A stretch of 64,000 nucleotides of DNA, taken from contig MHOA01000001.1 in the NCBI GenBank assembly GCA_001821765.1, positions 88,294 to 152,293 of the forward strand, written 5' to 3'. The notes below the pieces were generated by a model. The model did not search any database, was not told where the DNA came from, and worked only from the letters and a program-made list of their open reading frames with translations. Positions 3,985 through 38,511 of this stretch are shown here, in pieces. The stretch is from Candidatus Ryanbacteria bacterium RIFCSPLOWO2_12_FULL_44_26. Its GTDB lineage: Bacteria; Patescibacteriota; Minisyncoccia; Ryanbacterales; HO2-45-13. Each line of letters begins with the position of its first letter. The stretch's first letter is position 1. The position numbers and the translations under genes are program-made.

Positions 3985-4293
3985 ATGATTGCTATCATCG
4001 AAACGGGAGGAAAACAATACATTATCAAGAGCGGCGAAAAGCTGGATGTTGAAAAGCTGCCTCAAAAGGAAGGGGACAGTATAACATTTGATAAAGTGCT
4101 TCTGACTGCAACCGACAAGGAAGTGAAAATCGGCAGGCCCTATGTTGACGGCGCTTTGGTTACGGTAACGTTGATCGGGCACGGCAAAGGAAAAAAAATC
4201 CGCATCATGCGGTATCACTCAAAAACAAGGCACAGGAGAAGAAAAGGGCACCGCCAGCTTTATAGCCGCATTGAGGTGGCAAACATAAAATGA
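3985..4293 (+). CDS. rplU: 50S ribosomal protein L21
   Basis: MIAIIETGGKQY.. N-terminus and basic C-terminus typical of bL21. Confidence 0.9.
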   Translation: MIAIIETGGKQYIIKSGEKLDVEKLPQKEGDSITFDKVLLTATDKEVKIGRPYVDGALVTVTLIGHGKGKKIRIMRYHSKTRHRRRKGHRQLYSRIEVANIK

Positions 4294-4967: not shown

Positions 4968-6359
4968 TTACATAGTAACCGGTTCTTCCACTGCTTGATC
5001 AACATCGGGCGGTTCTGCGATGTCTCCCATGTATTTTTCTACCGGGGAGAATTTGACTTTTTTTTCGTTAAAGTAAAGGTACACTCTTCCGGTGGGACCG
5101 TTTCGGTGTTTTTCAATCAGGATTTCTGCGATATTTTCTCTGGCTCCTTCACGTTTGGCTTTATCTTCCCGGTAAATAAATATTACAACATCGGCATCTT
5201 GTTCTATTGAACCGGATTCTCTTAAGTCTGAAAGGCGAGGGATAGGAGGATGTCGCTGTTCCACAAGCCGTGAAAGCTGTGAAATCGCAAGCACCGGCAC
5301 ATCAAGTTCTTTTGCGAGGGATTTTAAAGATCGGGAAAACTCGCTTACTTCCTGAACCCGATTTTCTGTTCTTTTTCTTCCTTCCATAAGCTGCAGATAA
5401 TCCACAACGATGAGCCCCAAACCATGCTCTGCCTTTAGTCTTCTTGACATAGCACGTATTTCTAAAATGGTATTTGACGCCGCATCATCAATAAAAATAG
5501 GCGCTTTGGAAAGCTTCTCTAAAGCGTCTCGAATGCGGGTGAAATCGTCTGAATCTTCTCTTAGTCTTCCTGTTCTAAGGTTCCATAGATCAACATTTGA
5601 TTCAGCGGCAATGAAACGATCTATAAGCTGCTGGACAGACATTTCCAAACTGAAGATTCCAACAGTAATGTTGTTATGCACCGCAACATTTCTGGCTATA
5701 TCAAGCGCAAGTGCCGTTTTTCCTAAAGAAGGCCTGGCGGCGAGCACAATAAGATCAGACGGCTGAAGACCGGAAAGAATATTATCTAACTCCGGGAAGC
5801 CCGTTGGAACACCGCGTATTGCTCCTTTACCGCGGTGCAGAAAATCAATTCTCTCCCAAGCTTCGGTCAGCGCATCTTTCACTTTGATAAACCTTTGTTT
5901 CAACGAACTTTGCGAGATTTTAAATATCTTTTTTTCCGCATCGTCCAGCAACGCTTCTACATCTCCTTCCTCCTGATACCCCAGATTATTGATTTGATGT
6001 GAAGCCTCAATAAGATCTCTAAGTACTTTTTTCTTTTTCACAATATCTGCATAATGGTGGATATGTGAAGCAGTTGCCACGCTATTTACCAGAGACGTTA
6101 GATAACTTGCATCTCCGACATCTTTGAGCAGGTTTTGTTCTTTGAGGCGTCCGGAAACAGAAACAATATCAACGGGACTGTTCTTATTGAAGAGATCGAG
6201 CATTGCGCCATAGATGATGCCGTGATCTTTGCGGTAGAAATCTTCCGGACGCAACATATCAGCCACTCGTTCAATGATGTCAGCGGCAATCATAATTGAA
6301 CCGAGAACAGCCATTTCCGCTTCCGCATTGTGCGGAGGCACTTTTATAAGCTCGGTCAT
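4968..6359 (-). CDS. dnaB: replicative DNA helicase DnaB
   Basis: N-terminal DnaB domain (NAEAEMAVLGSIMI), Walker A GKTALALD, RecA-like core. Confidence 0.9.
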   Translation of the reverse strand: MTELIKVPPHNAEAEMAVLGSIMIAADIIERVADMLRPEDFYRKDHGIIYGAMLDLFNKNSPVDIVSVSGRLKEQNLLKDVGDASYLTSLVNSVATASHIHHYADIVKKKKVLRDLIEASHQINNLGYQEEGDVEALLDDAEKKIFKISQSSLKQRFIKVKDALTEAWERIDFLHRGKGAIRGVPTGFPELDNILSGLQPSDLIVLAARPSLGKTALALDIARNVAVHNNITVGIFSLEMSVQQLIDRFIAAESNVDLWNLRTGRLREDSDDFTRIRDALEKLSKAPIFIDDAASNTILEIRAMSRRLKAEHGLGLIVVDYLQLMEGRKRTENRVQEVSEFSRSLKSLAKELDVPVLAISQLSRLVEQRHPPIPRLSDLRESGSIEQDADVVIFIYREDKAKREGARENIAEILIEKHRNGPTGRVYLYFNEKKVKFSPVEKYMGDIAEPPDVDQAVEEPVTM

Positions 6360-12578: not shown

Positions 12579-14843
12579 CTACAGCGTCTCCCGTCTAAGG
12601 AATCTGAATATTTTTGCCAGTTCCGGAAGCCAAGGTCGGTCAAAGTGCGCAAGGAGCGCGGGAAGCAGGATCAAATCTCCAAAAAGAGCATACAGCATTG
12701 TTACACTAAGGAGCCGGGAAAATGTGTGGTATGGAATCAGGTCTGCCATATTCATTGCGAGAAATCCGGCGACAACGGCGACGGTGCTGGTCACAATCGG
12801 GAATGCGAGCTCTTGGATGGTTTTTTTTACTGCTTGTTCAGGAAGAAAACCGCTCTTTCTGTGATGCGTATATTGTGCGAGAAAATGTCCCGTATCATCC
12901 ACAACAAGACCAAGCGCAATGGCGCTGACGATGGAACTGCCAATATCAAGATCAATCTCAAATATTCCAAGCAGAGCCAAGCTTCCGAGCACCGGCAGGG
13001 CGTTTACGACAATGGCAAAAGCGGCGAGTTTTATAGACCGAGTCAGCACTACGAACGTGACAAACACCAGCATTATTCCGGTCGCAAGTGACCGCATATT
13101 TTCTTTGGCAATTTGAATGCCTGCACGGAAGAATTGTGCGACTCTGCCTGTAAGAACAGCGTCAATCCTGTTTTCTTGCGCGAAACTTTTTACAGCTCTA
13201 TCAAATTTGCTGAAATCGTCCGAATTTCGAAAAGGCGTTTGGAGAAGCACTGTCAGGCTTGTTCGATCGTGGCTGATGTACGGTTCAATGTCGTCATCTT
13301 CAAATAACAGGAGGAACTGCGATACCCCCTCTTTCTTTTTCGGAAATTCTTCAGGCATATCCTCGTCGGCGCTGAAAGCCAGGCTCAATTGCCGCAATTG
13401 ATCGTAGAAGTTTGAAGCCCTCAACCCCGGGATGAGTATTTTTTGTTTTTCAACAAATGCATGGACAGTATTCTGTACTTTTGGCTCAACAGCGATTTCT
13501 TGGTGGATATTATCAAACACCGTAAGCGGGATAACGTATGTTCCAAAAATTTCTTTTACCCGATCAAACTGTAAATGGACAGGATTGTTTTCCTTAAGGT
13601 AATCAATCGGTCCGTAGTTTACCTTGAGTTTTCCAATCCCCAATGCGCTAACGGCAGTCAAGATGGCAATCAGCACTATCGTTTGTCGGCCAGTAAGCAT
13701 AAACAAATGCCGATTTCCGTCATTCGGTATCTTGTCTTCATCATCCTTTTTCCTAAACGCAAGCACAGGAAAGGTGAGTGTTATAGTGACAAAAAGACAT
13801 GCCAGAATCCCAAATGTCCCCAGAAATCCGAATTGCCTGACAGCGGGAATGCCGCTTATTCCGGTGGTGCCAAAGCCGATCATAGTTGTAATCACAGCAA
13901 ACGCAAACGGCCGTAGTGCAGATGCCGGAAGCCATCCAAAAAACATGTTTCCGCCGCGCTTCGCATAGCCGAACGCATGAATCGTAAATGCAGCCCCCAG
14001 AGGAATCAGCAGGTTGACCATAAGAACATTGACCGGATTTTGCGGGATGCCAACGATAACCATCAGCGCAAAAGTAAGCGCCGTTGTTGAAATTCCCGTA
14101 GCTCCTGCGAGGATGCCGACCAATACAGATCTTGTCTGTATCCAAACAACCGCCATCATGATAAACACCACGATCGGCAGTATCATTGAAGCGCGGTCTG
14201 TTGCGCGGGAAAGTTCAGCGCTGACATTCAGCTCGCCGCTTTGAAGCAAATCTCCGCCGTTACAGTCTGAAGAAACTCCATCACAAAACCCTCTGCGAAA
14301 GGCACTGCGGTGTTTTTCCAAAACAGCCTTTACTCCGTCACTTACTGTCAGCGCGTCAGTCTTTTTTTCAGCAACTATATATATCGCAACCGCTGTTGCT
14401 TCAGCGTTAATGAGCAGGTTTTTGTATGGGACATACGCAACAGCCAGCTCACAGCGCTTTTGAGCATCAGCGGAAACGTCTGGAAAATTCTTTACCTCAA
14501 CGGTATTGCCTCTACCGGCAATATAGTTAGCGTTTGTAAGAGAGATGACCCTGTCAACGCCCGACAAACGCTCAAGATCGTCTGAAAGGAGCGTAAGACG
14601 CTTCCATCCTTCTTCTGTGCAAAGCGCATTTCCGGTCGCGACAACGATATTTCCAGCGTCGCTCGGAAATTCCTCAAGATATCTCTCGTAGTACCGCGCA
14701 CTTACATCACCCCTCGGAAGAAGGGCAGTGTAGTCGTCATCGGTGGTGAGATGTTTGAGAAATGGTACACTGACCGTAAATACCAACGTGAAAAACGCAA
14801 TGGCGCTTTTGCGGCCAAAGGCACGCATCATCCATTCCTTCAT
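12579..14843 (-). CDS. MMPL/RND-superfamily membrane transporter (lipid/exporter type)
   Basis: 754 aa, two 6-TM bundles each preceded by a large loop, typical MMPL/SSD architecture. Confidence 0.6.
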   Translation of the reverse strand: MKEWMMRAFGRKSAIAFFTLVFTVSVPFLKHLTTDDDYTALLPRGDVSARYYERYLEEFPSDAGNIVVATGNALCTEEGWKRLTLLSDDLERLSGVDRVISLTNANYIAGRGNTVEVKNFPDVSADAQKRCELAVAYVPYKNLLINAEATAVAIYIVAEKKTDALTVSDGVKAVLEKHRSAFRRGFCDGVSSDCNGGDLLQSGELNVSAELSRATDRASMILPIVVFIMMAVVWIQTRSVLVGILAGATGISTTALTFALMVIVGIPQNPVNVLMVNLLIPLGAAFTIHAFGYAKRGGNMFFGWLPASALRPFAFAVITTMIGFGTTGISGIPAVRQFGFLGTFGILACLFVTITLTFPVLAFRKKDDEDKIPNDGNRHLFMLTGRQTIVLIAILTAVSALGIGKLKVNYGPIDYLKENNPVHLQFDRVKEIFGTYVIPLTVFDNIHQEIAVEPKVQNTVHAFVEKQKILIPGLRASNFYDQLRQLSLAFSADEDMPEEFPKKKEGVSQFLLLFEDDDIEPYISHDRTSLTVLLQTPFRNSDDFSKFDRAVKSFAQENRIDAVLTGRVAQFFRAGIQIAKENMRSLATGIMLVFVTFVVLTRSIKLAAFAIVVNALPVLGSLALLGIFEIDLDIGSSIVSAIALGLVVDDTGHFLAQYTHHRKSGFLPEQAVKKTIQELAFPIVTSTVAVVAGFLAMNMADLIPYHTFSRLLSVTMLYALFGDLILLPALLAHFDRPWLPELAKIFRFLRRETL

Positions 14844-33290: not shown

Positions 33291-34781
33291 ATGATGACCG
33301 AACCGAATTCCTTACATTTCGAGAATGTTCGCGTTCGTATTGCTCCCTCACCAAGCGGTTTTTTACATATCGGGACTGCGAGAACGGCGCTTTTTAATTG
33401 GTTGTTTGCGAAAAAACACAACGGAAGCTTCATTTTGCGTTTTGAAGATACCGACAGAGAACGATCAAAAAAAGAGTTTGAGTATAACATCAGAGAAGGG
33501 CTTGAGTGGCTCGGAATAACATGGGATGAAGAGTATCGGCAGTCGGAACGGCCTGCGGTTTATCAAACATACTTGGAAAAACTATTGAGTGGCGGCTGGA
33601 TTTACCGTTGCCCGCACAGAATTGAACAAAGCAACACTCCCCACATCTGTCCTTTCAGGGATCAAGACGAGACGGAAGAAGGGATCTTTCGATTTAAAAA
33701 CAACGAAAAAAAGACGATAACATTTAATGATATGGTGCGCGGAGCAGTTTCTTTCAACCCAAAAGACCTTGGAGATTTTTCAATTGCTGTGGATTTCTCA
33801 AGACCGTTATTTATTTTTGCCGGTGTTGTAGATGATAAAGAAATGCATATTTCTCACGTTATAAGAGGAGAGGATCATCTCTCAAACACACCAAAACAGA
33901 TATTGGTGGGGCGGGCGCTTGGATTTCCTGAGCCGAAGTGGGCGCACATCCCGCTTATTCTTGAAAAAAACCGCTCCAAACTTTCAAAGCGCGATGGAGC
34001 GACGTCAATTCTTGACTATCGGGAAATGGGCTATTTGCCCAACGCGCTTTTGAATTTTATGGCGCTGATGGGATGGCATCCGCTGGATGATACAAAAGAA
34101 ATAATCTCTCCAAAAGAATTGATAGCGGAATTCTCTGTAGAGCGCATCCAAAAAGGGGGAGCGGTTTTTAACATAGATAAACTAAATTGGATGAACAAGC
34201 AGTACATAAACAATTTAACGGATAAAGAAACAGCACAGTTGTTCATTCCTCATCTGATGAACGCCGGTCTCATAAAACCGGAGATTAAAAACATTCAGTT
34301 TCCTGCGGCATACGGCGGATACACGCCAACGGAAACATATGTCGCTAAAGATGGAAAATCTGTGCGGCTTGACTATATCATACAAATAGCTGCGCTGGAA
34401 AAGCCCAGAATTGAGAAACTTTCTGACATCACTGTATTTGGCGATTTCTTTTTTTGTAAACCGCAATATGATCTTGAGTTGCTTTCATGGAAAGGTGTAC
34501 AACCGCTGGAAGATATCCGTAGAAAACTTGACATAACAATAAATTTATTGGATAAGCTTGAAAACAAAAATTTCACAAAAAATGAACTGGAAGGCGCTTT
34601 GATACCCATAGCCGAAAAGGAAGGGAAAGGAGAGCTATTATGGCCCTTAAGAGCCGCTTTATCGGGCAAAAAGGCCTCTCCGGGGCCGTTTGAGATTATG
34701 GAAATATTGGGCAAGGAAACGACCATAGAGCGTCTTAAAGAAGCTAAAAAACGTCTATTGGAACATGTTGAAAAGATATAA
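33291..34781 (+). CDS. gltX: glutamyl-tRNA synthetase
   Basis: HIGH-type HIGTARTALFNW, KMSK-type KLSKR. Confidence 0.9.
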   Translation: MMTEPNSLHFENVRVRIAPSPSGFLHIGTARTALFNWLFAKKHNGSFILRFEDTDRERSKKEFEYNIREGLEWLGITWDEEYRQSERPAVYQTYLEKLLSGGWIYRCPHRIEQSNTPHICPFRDQDETEEGIFRFKNNEKKTITFNDMVRGAVSFNPKDLGDFSIAVDFSRPLFIFAGVVDDKEMHISHVIRGEDHLSNTPKQILVGRALGFPEPKWAHIPLILEKNRSKLSKRDGATSILDYREMGYLPNALLNFMALMGWHPLDDTKEIISPKELIAEFSVERIQKGGAVFNIDKLNWMNKQYINNLTDKETAQLFIPHLMNAGLIKPEIKNIQFPAAYGGYTPTETYVAKDGKSVRLDYIIQIAALEKPRIEKLSDITVFGDFFFCKPQYDLELLSWKGVQPLEDIRRKLDITINLLDKLENKNFTKNELEGALIPIAEKEGKGELLWPLRAALSGKKASPGPFEIMEILGKETTIERLKEAKKRLLEHVEKI

Positions 34782-36027
34782 ATTTGCTGTTCTTTTTGCG
34801 CTTTTACTATTTTTACCGATGTCATCGCTTCAGTCGTCAACTATTGATGAACTGAAAGACAAAATACAAGATCGAGAAAAGCAGATTTCAGATATTGAAT
34901 CGGAAATCGCTTCCTATCAAAAGACGCTTGATGAGACAGAAAAAAAGGCGAGCACGCTGAATAATGAAATTATCATCCGCGACACAAGAATAAAAAAGAT
35001 TAACGCTGATATCCGTCTTACCGAATCCAACATTAAAAAGGCTGAACTGGTCATTGAAACACTCATCCTTGAAATTTTAGATAAAGAACAAAAAATAACT
35101 GACAGGAAAGCTACGCTTGCCGAGCTAATAAGAACGATACACGAATTAGAAGGGGAGACATTAATTGAGATTTTTCTTGCAAATGAACAAATCTCTGATT
35201 TTTTCGGAGATGTTGAATATCTCCAAAACCTTGATTCGGCGATTCAAGCGAACCTGATGAATCTTAAGGATTTAAAAACGATTCTTGAGAATGAAAAAGA
35301 GTTGAATGAACGTGAGAAATCGAAATTAAGCACGCTAAGGAGCGACTTTTCGGCGAGAAAAACAATTGAAGAAAATATTAAAAAAGATAAAGCGGCATTG
35401 CTTAAAAAAACACAGCAGGAAGAAGCAAAATATCAACAGCTGCTGGATGAACGAGAAAAGGCGCGGGCAGAGATTATTGCGGAAATAAATGAAATTGAAG
35501 AACAATTGCGGTTGCTTATTGATCCTTCTCAATTACCGCCGAAAGGGACAAAGGTGCTGGCATGGCCGGTTGAAGACCCATTTATCACTCAAGGATACGG
35601 CTATACCGTGTTTGCTGTTAAACGATCAGACATCTATCAGGGAAAAGGACATAATGGAATTGATTTCCGAGCCAGCATTGGAACACCTATTCTTGCAGTT
35701 GCTGATGGCGTTGTTGTTGATACGGGAAATACTGATCTTACTTGTCTAGGCGGATCATATGGAAAATGGATTGTTATAAAACATAGTAACAACCTTGCAA
35801 CCGTTTATGCGCACCTTTCTCTTATAAATGTTAAAAAAGGACAGGAAGTAAAAAAGGGAGAAAGCATCGCTTACAGCGGAGATTCCGGCTATACGTTAGG
35901 ACCTCATCTTCATTTTACCGTCTATGCCGCAAATACGCTTCGTTTTGCGCCGTCTCCAAGCGGGAGATGCCGATATCAGCCCTATGGAGGCCCGATAGAT
36001 CCATTAGATTACCTTCCGTCAATTTAA
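34765..36027 (+). CDS. M23 family peptidase with N-terminal coiled coil (EnvC/NlpD-like)
   Basis: Signal peptide, long coiled coil, C-terminal HNGIDFRA...GPHLHF M23 motifs. Confidence 0.8.
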   Translation: MLKRYKFAVLFALLLFLPMSSLQSSTIDELKDKIQDREKQISDIESEIASYQKTLDETEKKASTLNNEIIIRDTRIKKINADIRLTESNIKKAELVIETLILEILDKEQKITDRKATLAELIRTIHELEGETLIEIFLANEQISDFFGDVEYLQNLDSAIQANLMNLKDLKTILENEKELNEREKSKLSTLRSDFSARKTIEENIKKDKAALLKKTQQEEAKYQQLLDEREKARAEIIAEINEIEEQLRLLIDPSQLPPKGTKVLAWPVEDPFITQGYGYTVFAVKRSDIYQGKGHNGIDFRASIGTPILAVADGVVVDTGNTDLTCLGGSYGKWIVIKHSNNLATVYAHLSLINVKKGQEVKKGESIAYSGDSGYTLGPHLHFTVYAANTLRFAPSPSGRCRYQPYGGPIDPLDYLPSI

Positions 36028-36066
36028 TTGGAATTTATTTGAGCCGTGTAATATAATATAAGCGAT

Positions 36067-36351
36067 ATGATTCGTTTGCTGATAATATTTGTATTAGTTG
36101 TTGTTTTACTAAGTCTGCTTGGGGTAAATATTGTTTCATTGTTAAATAACAAAACCTTGCGTGACAATTTTAGTTTTATTTGGAACTGGACAAAACATAT
36201 CTGGATTACATATCTTAAAGCGCCCGTTGCGCGTGCGGCAATTTTTATCTGGGAAGAGGGAATAAAGCCGGTTTTTCAGCTGCTCAAAGACCGCAATAAT
36301 GCGAGTAACGAAGGGGATGCGCGCATAGGACGCACTATATCCATTACTTGA
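36067..36351 (+). CDS. hypothetical small membrane protein
   Basis: 94 aa, one N-terminal TM. Confidence 0.4.
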   Translation: MIRLLIIFVLVVVLLSLLGVNIVSLLNNKTLRDNFSFIWNWTKHIWITYLKAPVARAAIFIWEEGIKPVFQLLKDRNNASNEGDARIGRTISIT

Positions 36352-36359
36352 AGTTTTGA

Positions 36360-36660
36360 AGTTCAGTCTGCTTATAGGTCGCCAAAGGTATATTGTGCGA
36401 CCTAGGCGATGAGGGGTTTCCTAGGATGCGCCACGATTCACGATCTCGCTGCGGCGAGGGTTCCGACACCTCCCTCCCCGCCTGTGGGTGAGTTTGTCGA
36501 GCAGTGAGAGAAGTTCCCTCGAGCCGCGCCCTGTAAAGGGTGGAGGGAGGACGCCGAGTTTGCGTTTTGGAGTCGGCGGTGCTCGCCGACTAGAAAAACT
36601 CGACGCCCTTCCACAAAGGAAAGGCCGGTACGCTGATAGCGTACCGGCCTTTTTTACTTC
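36360..36660 (+). ncRNA. GC-rich structured RNA candidate ending in an intrinsic terminator (class unassigned)
   Basis: About 60% GC island with no credible ORF; helices AGGTCGC...GCGACCT, CCTCCCTCC...GGAGGGAGG, GAGTCGGCG...CGCCGACT; 12-bp GC hairpin plus T6 at 36623-36655. Confidence 0.35.
36620..36656 (+). terminator. strong rho-independent terminator
   Basis: GGCCGGTACGCT-gat-AGCGTACCGGCC followed by T6. Confidence 0.7.
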
Positions 36661-36687
36661 AGTCACAGTCAAGCGATGTGTCGGAAA

Positions 36688-36729
36688 TAAAAAAAGCTTG
36701 TTGATACTGTGATCACAAGCTTTTTTTGG
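36688..36729. terminator. bidirectional terminator
   Basis: A7-AAGCTTGT...ACAAGCTT-T7. Confidence 0.6.
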
Positions 36730-36744
36730 TATGGCTCCTCTTCT

Positions 36745-37044
36745 TTACCGCGCTATTACGCAGTACTCCCTTACGGCTCGTAAGGCCATATTGAAATGAC
36801 GCTGGTCAAAATCATCCGGGAACCGCTGTTTCAGCTCCATACAAAGATCCTCTGTTTTCACTTCCCCAGCCACAAGTACGCGCTCTAGAAGTGCTGTTTT
36901 GTAGAATGTGATGGGATAGATACGCATCTGATGTGTGAGATCCCGATGATCTTCAAGCAGGCACTGATACTCATTCAGTTTTCTTTTTGCTCTGTTTATT
37001 CCCCTACTGCTCTTTGGAAGCAAATACGTCAAAATTCCCCCCAT
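36745..37044 (-). CDS. hypothetical protein (99 aa)
   Basis: ORF with terminator downstream; no recognisable motif. Confidence 0.45.
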   Translation of the reverse strand: MGGILTYLLPKSSRGINRAKRKLNEYQCLLEDHRDLTHQMRIYPITFYKTALLERVLVAGEVKTEDLCMELKQRFPDDFDQRHFNMALRAVREYCVIAR

Positions 37045-37347
37045 TCTCGCAAATGCGATTTTTGTTTCGGTGAAAGTTTAACACAATATCTGTTTTCTGT
37101 CAATCAAGGAACATACACAACACAAGAAAAAGCAGGAAGCAACAAAACGACACGACAATCGTCTCAAGCGTACTTTTCCTCCCCTGTTGGTCTGATAAAG
37201 AACATATAAGAAACTGATACCGTCGTCAACATTACAGTTTCTGTGAATAATTGATTAGCGGCTTATCTCTACGTTAAATAGAATATAAAAAGAAATGAGC
37301 TTGCTGAGCAGGTTTTTTTCTTTTTTCCAACACGGTACAATGTTTCT

Positions 37348-38511
37348 ATGCGAACGAGTTATTCGGCGTTGGATACATACAAACAGTGCCCTAAAAAATA
37401 TAAATTTCAGCAAATTGACAAAATAAAAATTCCAAAGACAAAGGAAGCCGTTTTTGGCACGCTCGTGCATGAATCGTTAAAATTCATGTTTTCCCGAGAC
37501 CCTCTCTTCCCTACTCTTGAAGAAGTGCTGGCATCTTTTAGAGAAAAATTGGCCGAATCTCCAATAAAAAATGAGGATAAAGAACGATATGGGGAAGCCG
37601 GAATGGAAATGCTTAGAAAATTTTGGAAGAAAAATCCCCCATGGAACTTTAACGTGATAGACACTGAATCAAGGTTTGAAGTGACATTAGACGACAACAC
37701 GAACAAAACCACACATGTGCTCGCGGGAATCATTGACCGCATTGACACGCCGTCTGAAAGCACTTATGAAGTAATTGATTATAAAACCTCAAGAAAACTC
37801 CCGTCTCAAAAATATGTTGATGAAGATTTACAGCTTTCTTTATATCACTTAGCCATCACAAAACGCTGGCCCCACACAGATCCGGACTATATTATTCTTT
37901 CTCTTTATTACCTGAAAGCCGGTGAAAAACTTTCCACTAAAAGGAGCGGCGGGGCATTAAAAACGACTGAAGAAAAAGTTCTGGAAAAGATTCATGCCAT
38001 TGAAGAAAAAATAAAGAGTGACGATTTCCCGCCAAAACCTTCTGCTCTTTGCAATTGGTGCGGCTACAGACCTATTTGTCCCGCGTGGAAACATCTTTAT
38101 CAAAAGAAAAAAGACGCAAGCCCGCAAGATATAGAAATAGAAAGGGTCATTGACGATTTTTTGGAGCTGAAACAAAAATCAGAGGAAGATAAAAAAAAGA
38201 TTGCCGAACTTGCTGACAAAATAAATGTATATATGGATTTAGAAAAGGTTGAACGTTTATTTGGCAAAAAAAATATTATTTCACGCAGCATTCAGGAACG
38301 CACTGAATGGAGCATAGATGAAGTAAAAGAAATTCTCCAACCGCTTGGCCTATGGGAGGAAATTCTTAGCGCCGATATAAAAAAATTAAACGCGCTTTTT
38401 TCAAAACTCCCCGCACAAACCAGAAAAAAGCTTCAAGAAAAAGCCATAAAACTGAAGCGGTTTACCGCGCTTAAAGTTTTAAAAAAGAAAGTCTCGCCGC
38501 CTGACGAATAG
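37348..38511 (+). CDS. PD-(D/E)XK nuclease, RecB/Cas4-like with Fe-S Cys cluster and helical C-terminal extension
   Basis: N-terminal YSALDTYKQCPKKYKF, IDRID..VIDYKT core, C-terminal CNWCGYRPICPAW (C..CxxCx5C). Confidence 0.7.
   Translation: MRTSYSALDTYKQCPKKYKFQQIDKIKIPKTKEAVFGTLVHESLKFMFSRDPLFPTLEEVLASFREKLAESPIKNEDKERYGEAGMEMLRKFWKKNPPWNFNVIDTESRFEVTLDDNTNKTTHVLAGIIDRIDTPSESTYEVIDYKTSRKLPSQKYVDEDLQLSLYHLAITKRWPHTDPDYIILSLYYLKAGEKLSTKRSGGALKTTEEKVLEKIHAIEEKIKSDDFPPKPSALCNWCGYRPICPAWKHLYQKKKDASPQDIEIERVIDDFLELKQKSEEDKKKIAELADKINVYMDLEKVERLFGKKNIISRSIQERTEWSIDEVKEILQPLGLWEEILSADIKKLNALFSKLPAQTRKKLQEKAIKLKRFTALKVLKKKVSPPDE

Follow-up and report, generated by a model that had tools for sequence, protein, structure and literature searches.

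Does a GC-rich island of about 300 nt in a Candidate Phyla Radiation (CPR) genome encode a stable RNA, or is it DNA of foreign origin? The island lies near 36.4 kb in a 64,000-nt stretch of DNA, hereafter the window, that covers positions 88,294 to 152,293 of contig MHOA01000001.1 from Candidatus Ryanbacteria bacterium RIFCSPLOWO2_12_FULL_44_26. A first-pass annotation, made from the letters of the window, had described it as one structured, non-coding unit with its own terminator, and had offered a novel stable RNA and a foreign relic as alternatives. We find that the feature at 36376–36660 is probably a composite and not one RNA gene. It comprises a site resembling dif, the 28-bp sequence at the replication terminus where chromosome dimers are resolved by Xer tyrosine recombinases, followed by a species-specific GC-rich insert and an intrinsic terminator. 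The GC-rich block itself is most likely a relic of foreign DNA, passively transcribed as a 3′ untranslated region (3′ UTR). Of the two earlier alternatives, we favour the relic over the stable RNA because the block is absent at the corresponding site in relatives, has no homologue in the collections searched and, taken without its flanking palindromes, folds only marginally (z = −2.3).

The dif-like site and the replication terminus

Positions 36376–36403 read AGGTCGCCAAA-GGTATA-TTGTGCGACCT, a 28-bp imperfect palindrome of 11-6-11 architecture whose arms are palindromic at 9 of 11 positions. The pairing of AGGTCGC with GCGACCT at 36376–36382 and 36397–36403, which had been taken for the 5′ helix of an RNA, is part of this conserved DNA site. 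Relatives were represented by 128 loci with 818 kb of dif-proximal DNA. The consensus of the clade across these loci, ATGTCGCAAAA-GGTATA-TTGTGCGACAT, has arms that are palindromic at 10 of 11 positions, and the outer arm positions covary palindromically, for example AGG..CCT versus ATG..CAT. At least 119 metagenome contigs, two IMG/VR contigs and two GTDB genomes contain the exact 20-mer AAAGGTATATTGTGCGACMT, one copy each, and the host GC content of the contigs that bear it spans 28–57%. The 28-bp site is single in the window, with up to three mismatches allowed, and is found once per contig in the 128 loci, a count that refers to contigs and not to whole genomes.

A dif site is defined by 11-bp arms with partial dyad symmetry around a 6-bp centre (PMC5357621), and published in-silico predictions of dif rest on the criteria applied here (PMC3025954). 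Aligned in register with E. coli dif (GGTGCGCATAATGTATATTATGTTAAAT, as printed in PMC3025954), the window site is identical at 17 of 28 positions and the clade consensus at 18 of 28 (binomial P ~1.3e-5 for the consensus), with GTATATT common to both across the centre. Like the dif of E. coli, and like dif sites served by XerC/XerD or by a single Xer, the site is 28 bp long, has two 11-bp half-sites around a 6-bp centre and lies at a shift point of GC skew. Its consensus arms, TGTCGCAAAA / TTGTGCGACAT, nevertheless depart from the consensus of Proteobacteria and Firmicutes, and at 10/11 they have the greater symmetry. Judged from the arms, this greater symmetry could mean that a single recombinase acts on the site.

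Strand composition changes at the same place. In the window, GC skew drops from +0.081 on the left of the site to −0.113 on its right, and cumulative G−C reaches its maximum at 36581, about 200 bp away. Gene orientation follows, being mostly + on the left and mostly − on the right. Among the 31 relatives with at least 2.5 kb on each side, 21 show a switch in the sign of the skew at the site, almost all of them from + to −, compared with 16 of 61 control splits placed in the flanks. The locus is at the replication terminus, where the replichores and convergent transcription meet.

Gene order around the site is also conserved. To its left, on the + strand, stand the genes for GluRS (33291–34781), an M23 peptidase (34765–36027) and TM94, a 94-residue protein with one N-terminal transmembrane helix (36067–36351, called as an open reading frame (ORF)), which closes the GluRS-M23-TM94 unit. 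To its right lie a PD-(D/E)XK nuclease gene (37348–38511, + strand; Pfam PF12705, E = 2.9e-34), an Ada-Zn-like ORF on the − strand and the gene for ribosomal protein L27 on the + strand. Of the 67 loci with a match to any flanking protein, many keep the order GluRS-M23-(TM94)-site-(PDDEXK)-Ada-like-L27. TM94 homologues with 33–59% identity likewise stand just before the dif-like site in six loci of the relatives' set (L003, L005, L006, L036, L082 and L113). In L003, where TM94 is 47% identical, the same 20 nt, AAAGGTATATTGTGCGACCT, come just after the TM94 stop codon, and the inner 20-mer is identical in L003–L006.

We read the sequence at 36376–36403 as the putative dif/Xer site of this clade. 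The identification draws on architecture, likeness to E. coli dif, conservation, the skew switch and synteny, which are the criteria of published in-silico predictions. No description of a dif site in CPR bacteria or Patescibacteria was found in the literature searched, and a Parcubacteria dif site has apparently not been described before.

Composition, folding and termination of the GC-rich block

Compositionally, the island is as distinct as had been reported. Windows of 100 nt run at 60–65% GC across 36400–36650, in keeping with the earlier figure of about 60% over about 300 nt; 36404–36660 as a whole is 59.9% GC, and the species-specific core that the GC profile delimits at 36404–36616 (+ strand) reaches about 62%. 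With a window mean of 41.6% and a standard deviation of 5.7% (150-nt windows), the island stands about 3.5 standard deviations above background.

At its 3′ end lies the hairpin T1 (36617–36658, + strand), GGCCGGTACGCT-GAT-AGCGTACCGGCC followed by TTTTTT. The perfect 12-bp GC-rich stem noticed earlier is confirmed, and lengthens to 15 bp when A-U pairs are included; the arms at 36620–36634 and 36638–36652 are 100% complementary, the loop is GAT, and T6 occupies 36650–36655. Only the + strand has a T-run after the stem, the − strand having TTTCCTTTG there. From this layout T1 is the predicted intrinsic terminator of the GluRS-M23-TM94 unit. A simple terminator scan missed it, though stem and loop appear to be within the scan's stated limits. 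The island had been placed between a small membrane-protein gene and a bidirectional terminator. The gene is there, in the form of TM94, but the terminator resolves into two separate hairpins, at 36620–36652 and 36689–36727.

All three helices named in the earlier description exist in the sequence. Besides the dif palindrome, CCTCCCTCC pairs with GGAGGGAGG (36469–36477 and 36542–36550), and GAGTCGGCG with CGCCGACT (about 36570–36578 and 36584–36591). Structure as a property of the whole island did not hold up in the same way. Relative to shuffled sequences, folding of the full 311 nt gives z = −6.5 (+) and −6.9 (−), and this signal arises from the dif palindrome and the terminator. Once these are taken away, the remaining 213-nt core gives z = −2.3 (+) and −2.2 (−), values equalled by 7 and 5 of 200 shuffles, respectively, and shows no strand preference. 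The minimum free energy structure of the + strand omits the CCTCCCTCC/GGAGGGAGG helix and, with an ensemble frequency of 0.002, is ill-defined.

Known RNA families do not account for the block. With the Rfam 15 families, no match in the island attains the gathering threshold, and the whole window yields only two tRNAs. Under permissive filters at E<10, the region 36000–37000 gives only terminator-driven matches that score below half the gathering value, and ARAGORN finds no tmRNA. The earlier failure to place the island with RNase P, tmRNA, SRP or 6S RNA is borne out, and the family search it had called for is negative at gathering thresholds. Like those housekeeping RNAs, the block is a GC-rich, ORF-free, terminator-ended island in an AT-richer genome. 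It differs from them in having no covariance-model or ARAGORN match even at E<10, and in being unconserved and absent at the syntenic site of relatives.

Searches for homologues were similarly negative. In the 818 kb of dif-proximal DNA, blastn and nhmmer returned only three identical copies from the same species, and blastn in distant mode found no match to the island in phage and plasmid collections. Four 20- or 21-mers from the island were compared with IMG/VR; three had no match and one had a single match (L131). This is a bare 20-mer within a coding region of a phage of 67.5% GC, and we treated it as chance rather than homology. The same-species copies are identical over the whole 1.2 kb, island included, so the invariance of the island is uninformative. 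As no homologue was found, there were no covarying base pairs to count; within the reach of these tools, the block shows neither the conservation nor the covariation by which an RNA had been expected to reveal itself.

Could the block still be a genuine RNA peculiar to this lineage? It might be a regulatory 3′ UTR of the TM94 mRNA, a small RNA (sRNA) derived from that 3′ UTR, or an independent sRNA of about 250 nt. Such an RNA would begin right behind dif and end at T1; it would have come in with the insertion described below and been retained for its function. The block resembles long structured 3′ UTRs and the sRNAs derived from them in its position on the coding strand, with a stop codon before it and a strong stem-plus-U-tract terminator after it; block and upstream gene would share one transcript, and the block is probably transcribed as the 3′ UTR of the TM94 mRNA. 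It differs from them in being unusually GC-rich for its host, split by a recombination site and unconserved. A structured RNA would fit the GC excess, the strong + strand terminator, the lack of coding signal, the perfect 9-bp and 8-bp helices with a 17-nt imperfect hairpin at 36545–36612, a core z that only 7 of 200 shuffles equal, and a sequence invariant across population copies. Yet that invariance extends over the whole 1.2 kb, no homologue exists in the collections searched from which covariation could be counted, and both strands fold equally well. The poorly defined minimum free energy structure is rivalled by alternative pairings between G-runs and C-runs, and a convincing promoter for the block itself is lacking: the one −10-like hexamer, at the centre of dif, has no −35 element. 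We regard a lineage-specific structured RNA at the block as doubtful.

A probable species-specific insertion beside dif

In related genomes the PD-(D/E)XK gene directly follows dif. The gap between the two is 7–162 nt in 11 relatives (L003/4, L017, L019, L061, L071, L074, L078, L082, L108 and L113) and 944 nt here; in L003 no more than 35 nt separate the site from the start of the gene, and the island is absent. The 944-nt stretch holds the GC-rich block, T1, a second hairpin (T2), an orphan gene on the opposite strand (orf99) and about 300 nt of host-like, AT-rich spacer. We place the insertion at 36404 to about 37300, about 0.9 kb in all; it starts at the outer edge of the right arm of dif, and its right boundary is blurred. 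The last segment, 37045–37347, comprises the non-coding rest of the insertion together with the sequence upstream of the PD-(D/E)XK gene; its GC content of 40.8% is host-like, and it has no similarity to the 7–162-nt spacers of relatives. In none of the other loci compared is there a comparable GC excess downstream of the site, so the block is not a general companion of dif.

The gene within the insertion, orf99 (36745–37044, − strand), encodes a 99-residue helical protein. A word-index search with it returned only itself, and an exhaustive search gave 11 remote matches of 26–41% identity, none of which carries a family name. It has no Pfam match, and its AlphaFold2 model (pLDDT 72) has no fold match in the PDB at E<0.4. 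The protein belongs to an unnamed small helical domain family, and its remote homologues include a 1346-residue protein with 20 matched domain stretches (P0004) and several proteins of 100–370 residues. A promoter-like TTGACA-17-TAAACT with TG is found at 37103–37075. T2 (36689–36727) consists of AAAAAAAGCTTGT / ACAAGCTTTTTTT, two 13-nt arms that are 100% complementary, with A/T runs on both sides; it begins 18 nt past the orf99 stop codon and is the likely terminator of this convergent gene. We also considered orf99 and the block as a module of protein plus RNA. This is unsupported because both homologues whose surroundings we inspected, in L129 and L130, lie in ordinary operons with no GC-rich element adjoining.

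We infer that the GC-rich block came from a higher-GC source and was captured in the dif/terminus region, and that it is transcribed only passively as a 3′ UTR, without an RNA function of its own. In this scheme foreign DNA would have entered the recombination-prone terminus beside dif, perhaps as a dif-bearing circle integrated by Xer, with later decay of the second site, and would have separated dif from the PD-(D/E)XK gene. The block would now be transcribed because the GluRS-M23-TM94 transcript would read through dif into it until stopped by T1. Termination at T1 would precede collision with the newly inserted convergent gene, and T1 and T2 together would insulate the new convergent pair. 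Xer-mediated capture is conjecture, since no second site bounds the insertion, second dif-like sites over the 128 loci occur at the shuffled rate (7 observed versus 6 expected), and the larger inserts of distant relatives are ordinary host genes.

These larger inserts to the right of dif (L068, L083, L035 and L010) had been candidates for mobile elements. They consist of housekeeping genes of host GC, so we take them as differences in gene order. A direct repeat, TTTTGAAGTTCAGTC / TTTTTTACTTCAGTC (12/15 identical; 36354–36368 and 36650–36664), brackets dif, the GC-rich block and the terminator. We considered a target duplication and rejected it, since the relatives show dif to be ancestral here; the repeat is probably due to chance.

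Might the segment from 36404 to about 37300 itself be a decayed or miniature integrative mobile element that exploits Xer (IMEX), integrated at dif by the host's recombinases, with the block as, for example, an attachment, replication or packaging remnant? Integration of elements at dif has precedent (PMC5357621 and PMC9765430). The locus resembles known dif-associated insertions, among them CTXphi, VGJphi, TLCphi, the Neisseria gonococcal genetic island (GGI), elements of Legionellales and the dif modules of Acinetobacter: foreign-looking DNA adjoins dif, here at the outer edge of its right arm, there is no integrase of its own, the site in relatives is empty or differently filled, and the same site is present on mobile replicons. 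L005 and L006 carry different small orphan-gene inserts at the same position. Half-sites also occur, with a 10/11 right-arm half-site within the insert of L006 and an exact 14-nt half-site 557 bp away in L067.

The phage-type replicons L008 and L009, both viral contigs from IMG/VR, bear the same type of site, at 13807–13834 (− strand) and 6245–6272, respectively, each within a long non-coding region rich in iteron-like repeats. L008 encodes a phage replication module made up of ribonucleotide reductase, exonuclease, replication initiator and DnaB-like helicase. On these contigs the site could serve either to resolve phage multimers or as an attP through which Xer would integrate the DNA into CPR hosts; possible donors exist.

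Against such an element stand the far end of the segment, where no second dif-like site is found, and the lack of any other copy in the dif regions of relatives or in the phage, plasmid and viral collections. Second sites over all loci do not exceed the shuffled rate, and the larger inserts of distant relatives are host genes, as noted above. The known systems differ further from this locus in that the segment is only about 0.9 kb long and carries one orphan gene. We consider an IMEX improbable here.

The inserts of L005 and L006 have features of their own. Directly after dif, both carry a homologous ORF of about 100 residues (3429–3764 in L005 and 1365–1670 in L006, both on the − strand) that is unlike the insert of the window; it is followed by small ORFs sharing the motif 'LKLWEK...QKD.I'. 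In L006, where dif is at 1297, a fragment of the PD-(D/E)XK gene lies at about 2385–2504 (residues 1–40, 65% identity), and the full gene starts at 4001. Small orphan ORFs lie in the 1.6 kb between this duplicate of the 5′ end and the intact gene downstream, and the arrangement looks like the outcome of an element inserted at the start of the gene, carrying or duplicating its 5′ end.

Weighing the readings

The composite of dif site, foreign insert and terminator is our preferred reading, and several points weigh against it. GC-rich, ORF-free, terminator-ended islands in AT-richer genomes are often RNAs, and a 62% GC block closed by a strong terminator in a 41% GC genome looks typical of a structural RNA; horizontally acquired DNA is more often AT-rich. 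The island contains several perfect helices of 8–9 bp, and the core, at z = −2.3, still leans towards structure. Even the nearest relatives recovered are far removed, with at most 69% identity in the PD-(D/E)XK protein and at most 56% in the M23 peptidase, and an RNA conserved at the level of the genus would escape such a comparison. As for capture at dif, the best second dif-like site in 36404–37420 is identical at 15 of 28 positions, with a best core match of 11/14, which is chance level, and none of the ten window ORFs of 300–370 residues has a match to the Phage_integrase family that would mark a Xer recombinase.

The remaining alternatives fare worse than those weighed so far. A functional RNA brought into a CPR dif site by a Xer-exploiting mobile element would join the two, and we hold it to be quite improbable. 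By analogy with Rcd, one possibility is that such an RNA would be transcribed across or out of dif and modulate Xer recombination or cell division.

Very improbable, too, is that the block is the decayed remnant of a protein-coding gene from a donor of high GC content, or that it belongs to a known RNA family but has diverged too far for the models to detect it. The block has long stop-free frames on both strands (83, 58 and 74 residues) and a GC content far from that of the host, but long open frames are expected by chance at 62% GC. The 83-residue frame has no match among 5.8 billion proteins, and none of four frames from the island has a Pfam match at E<1. Every protein-level test of a pseudogene was negative, in keeping with the earlier judgement that the island's ORFs are artefacts. 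For a missed RNA family, the permissive Rfam search with its terminator-driven matches and the negative ARAGORN result tell against it in the same way.

Finally, that the block is a functional adjunct of dif, either accessory sequence like the flanks of plasmid cer and psi or the template of an Rcd-like checkpoint RNA, is scarcely credible: the block does directly abut the site, ends in a terminator and has the −10-like TATATT of the dif centre oriented towards it, but that hexamer has no −35 element, more than 120 genomes use the same 28-bp site with no such block, none of the other loci shares its downstream GC excess, the next gene starts 7–162 nt after the site in 11 relatives, and chromosomal dif sites are not known to require accessory sequences (PMC5357621).

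Elsewhere in the window, a second GC-rich island at 1031–2340 had been likened to the one at 36.4 kb. The two have no sequence in common, and the 36.4-kb island has no similarity to any other part of the window. The 1031–2340 island adjoins tRNA-Lys (958–1031), has no Rfam match at E<1, and its overlapping ORFs of 158 and 175 residues have no Pfam match. A 24-nt direct repeat over the 5′ end of the tRNA (944–967 and 2251–2274; 79% identity) brackets it, a hint that an element may have integrated there, at a second classic target of recombination. Nearer to dif, a promoter-like site occupies 36028–36057, just upstream of the TM94 gene. At 37287–37325, about 20 nt upstream of the PD-(D/E)XK start codon, an imperfect hairpin (AAAAAGAAATGAGCTTGCT / AGCAGGTTTTTTTCTTTTT) is followed by a T-run, and could be an attenuator or a leftover terminator.

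As a single-species, unconserved and weakly structured block, the RNA candidate carries little weight, and at present it is a poor candidate for a new RNA family. The locus illustrates a general caution: palindromic DNA sites and terminators can mimic the signal of a structured RNA. If the block were a functional RNA delivered by a mobile element after all, the Candidate Phyla Radiation would have its first example of an RNA cargo or regulator linked to a dif site. The wider value of the locus lies in the site beside the block. A very strongly conserved dif-type sequence marks the replication terminus in a broad set of Parcubacteria/CPR genomes, from 28 to 57% GC, and offers a simple landmark by which the terminus can be found, and the contigs oriented, in fragmentary CPR assemblies. 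It also gives a handle on whether these reduced genomes use one Xer recombinase or two, and it suggests where to look in CPR hosts for mobile DNA that makes use of Xer.

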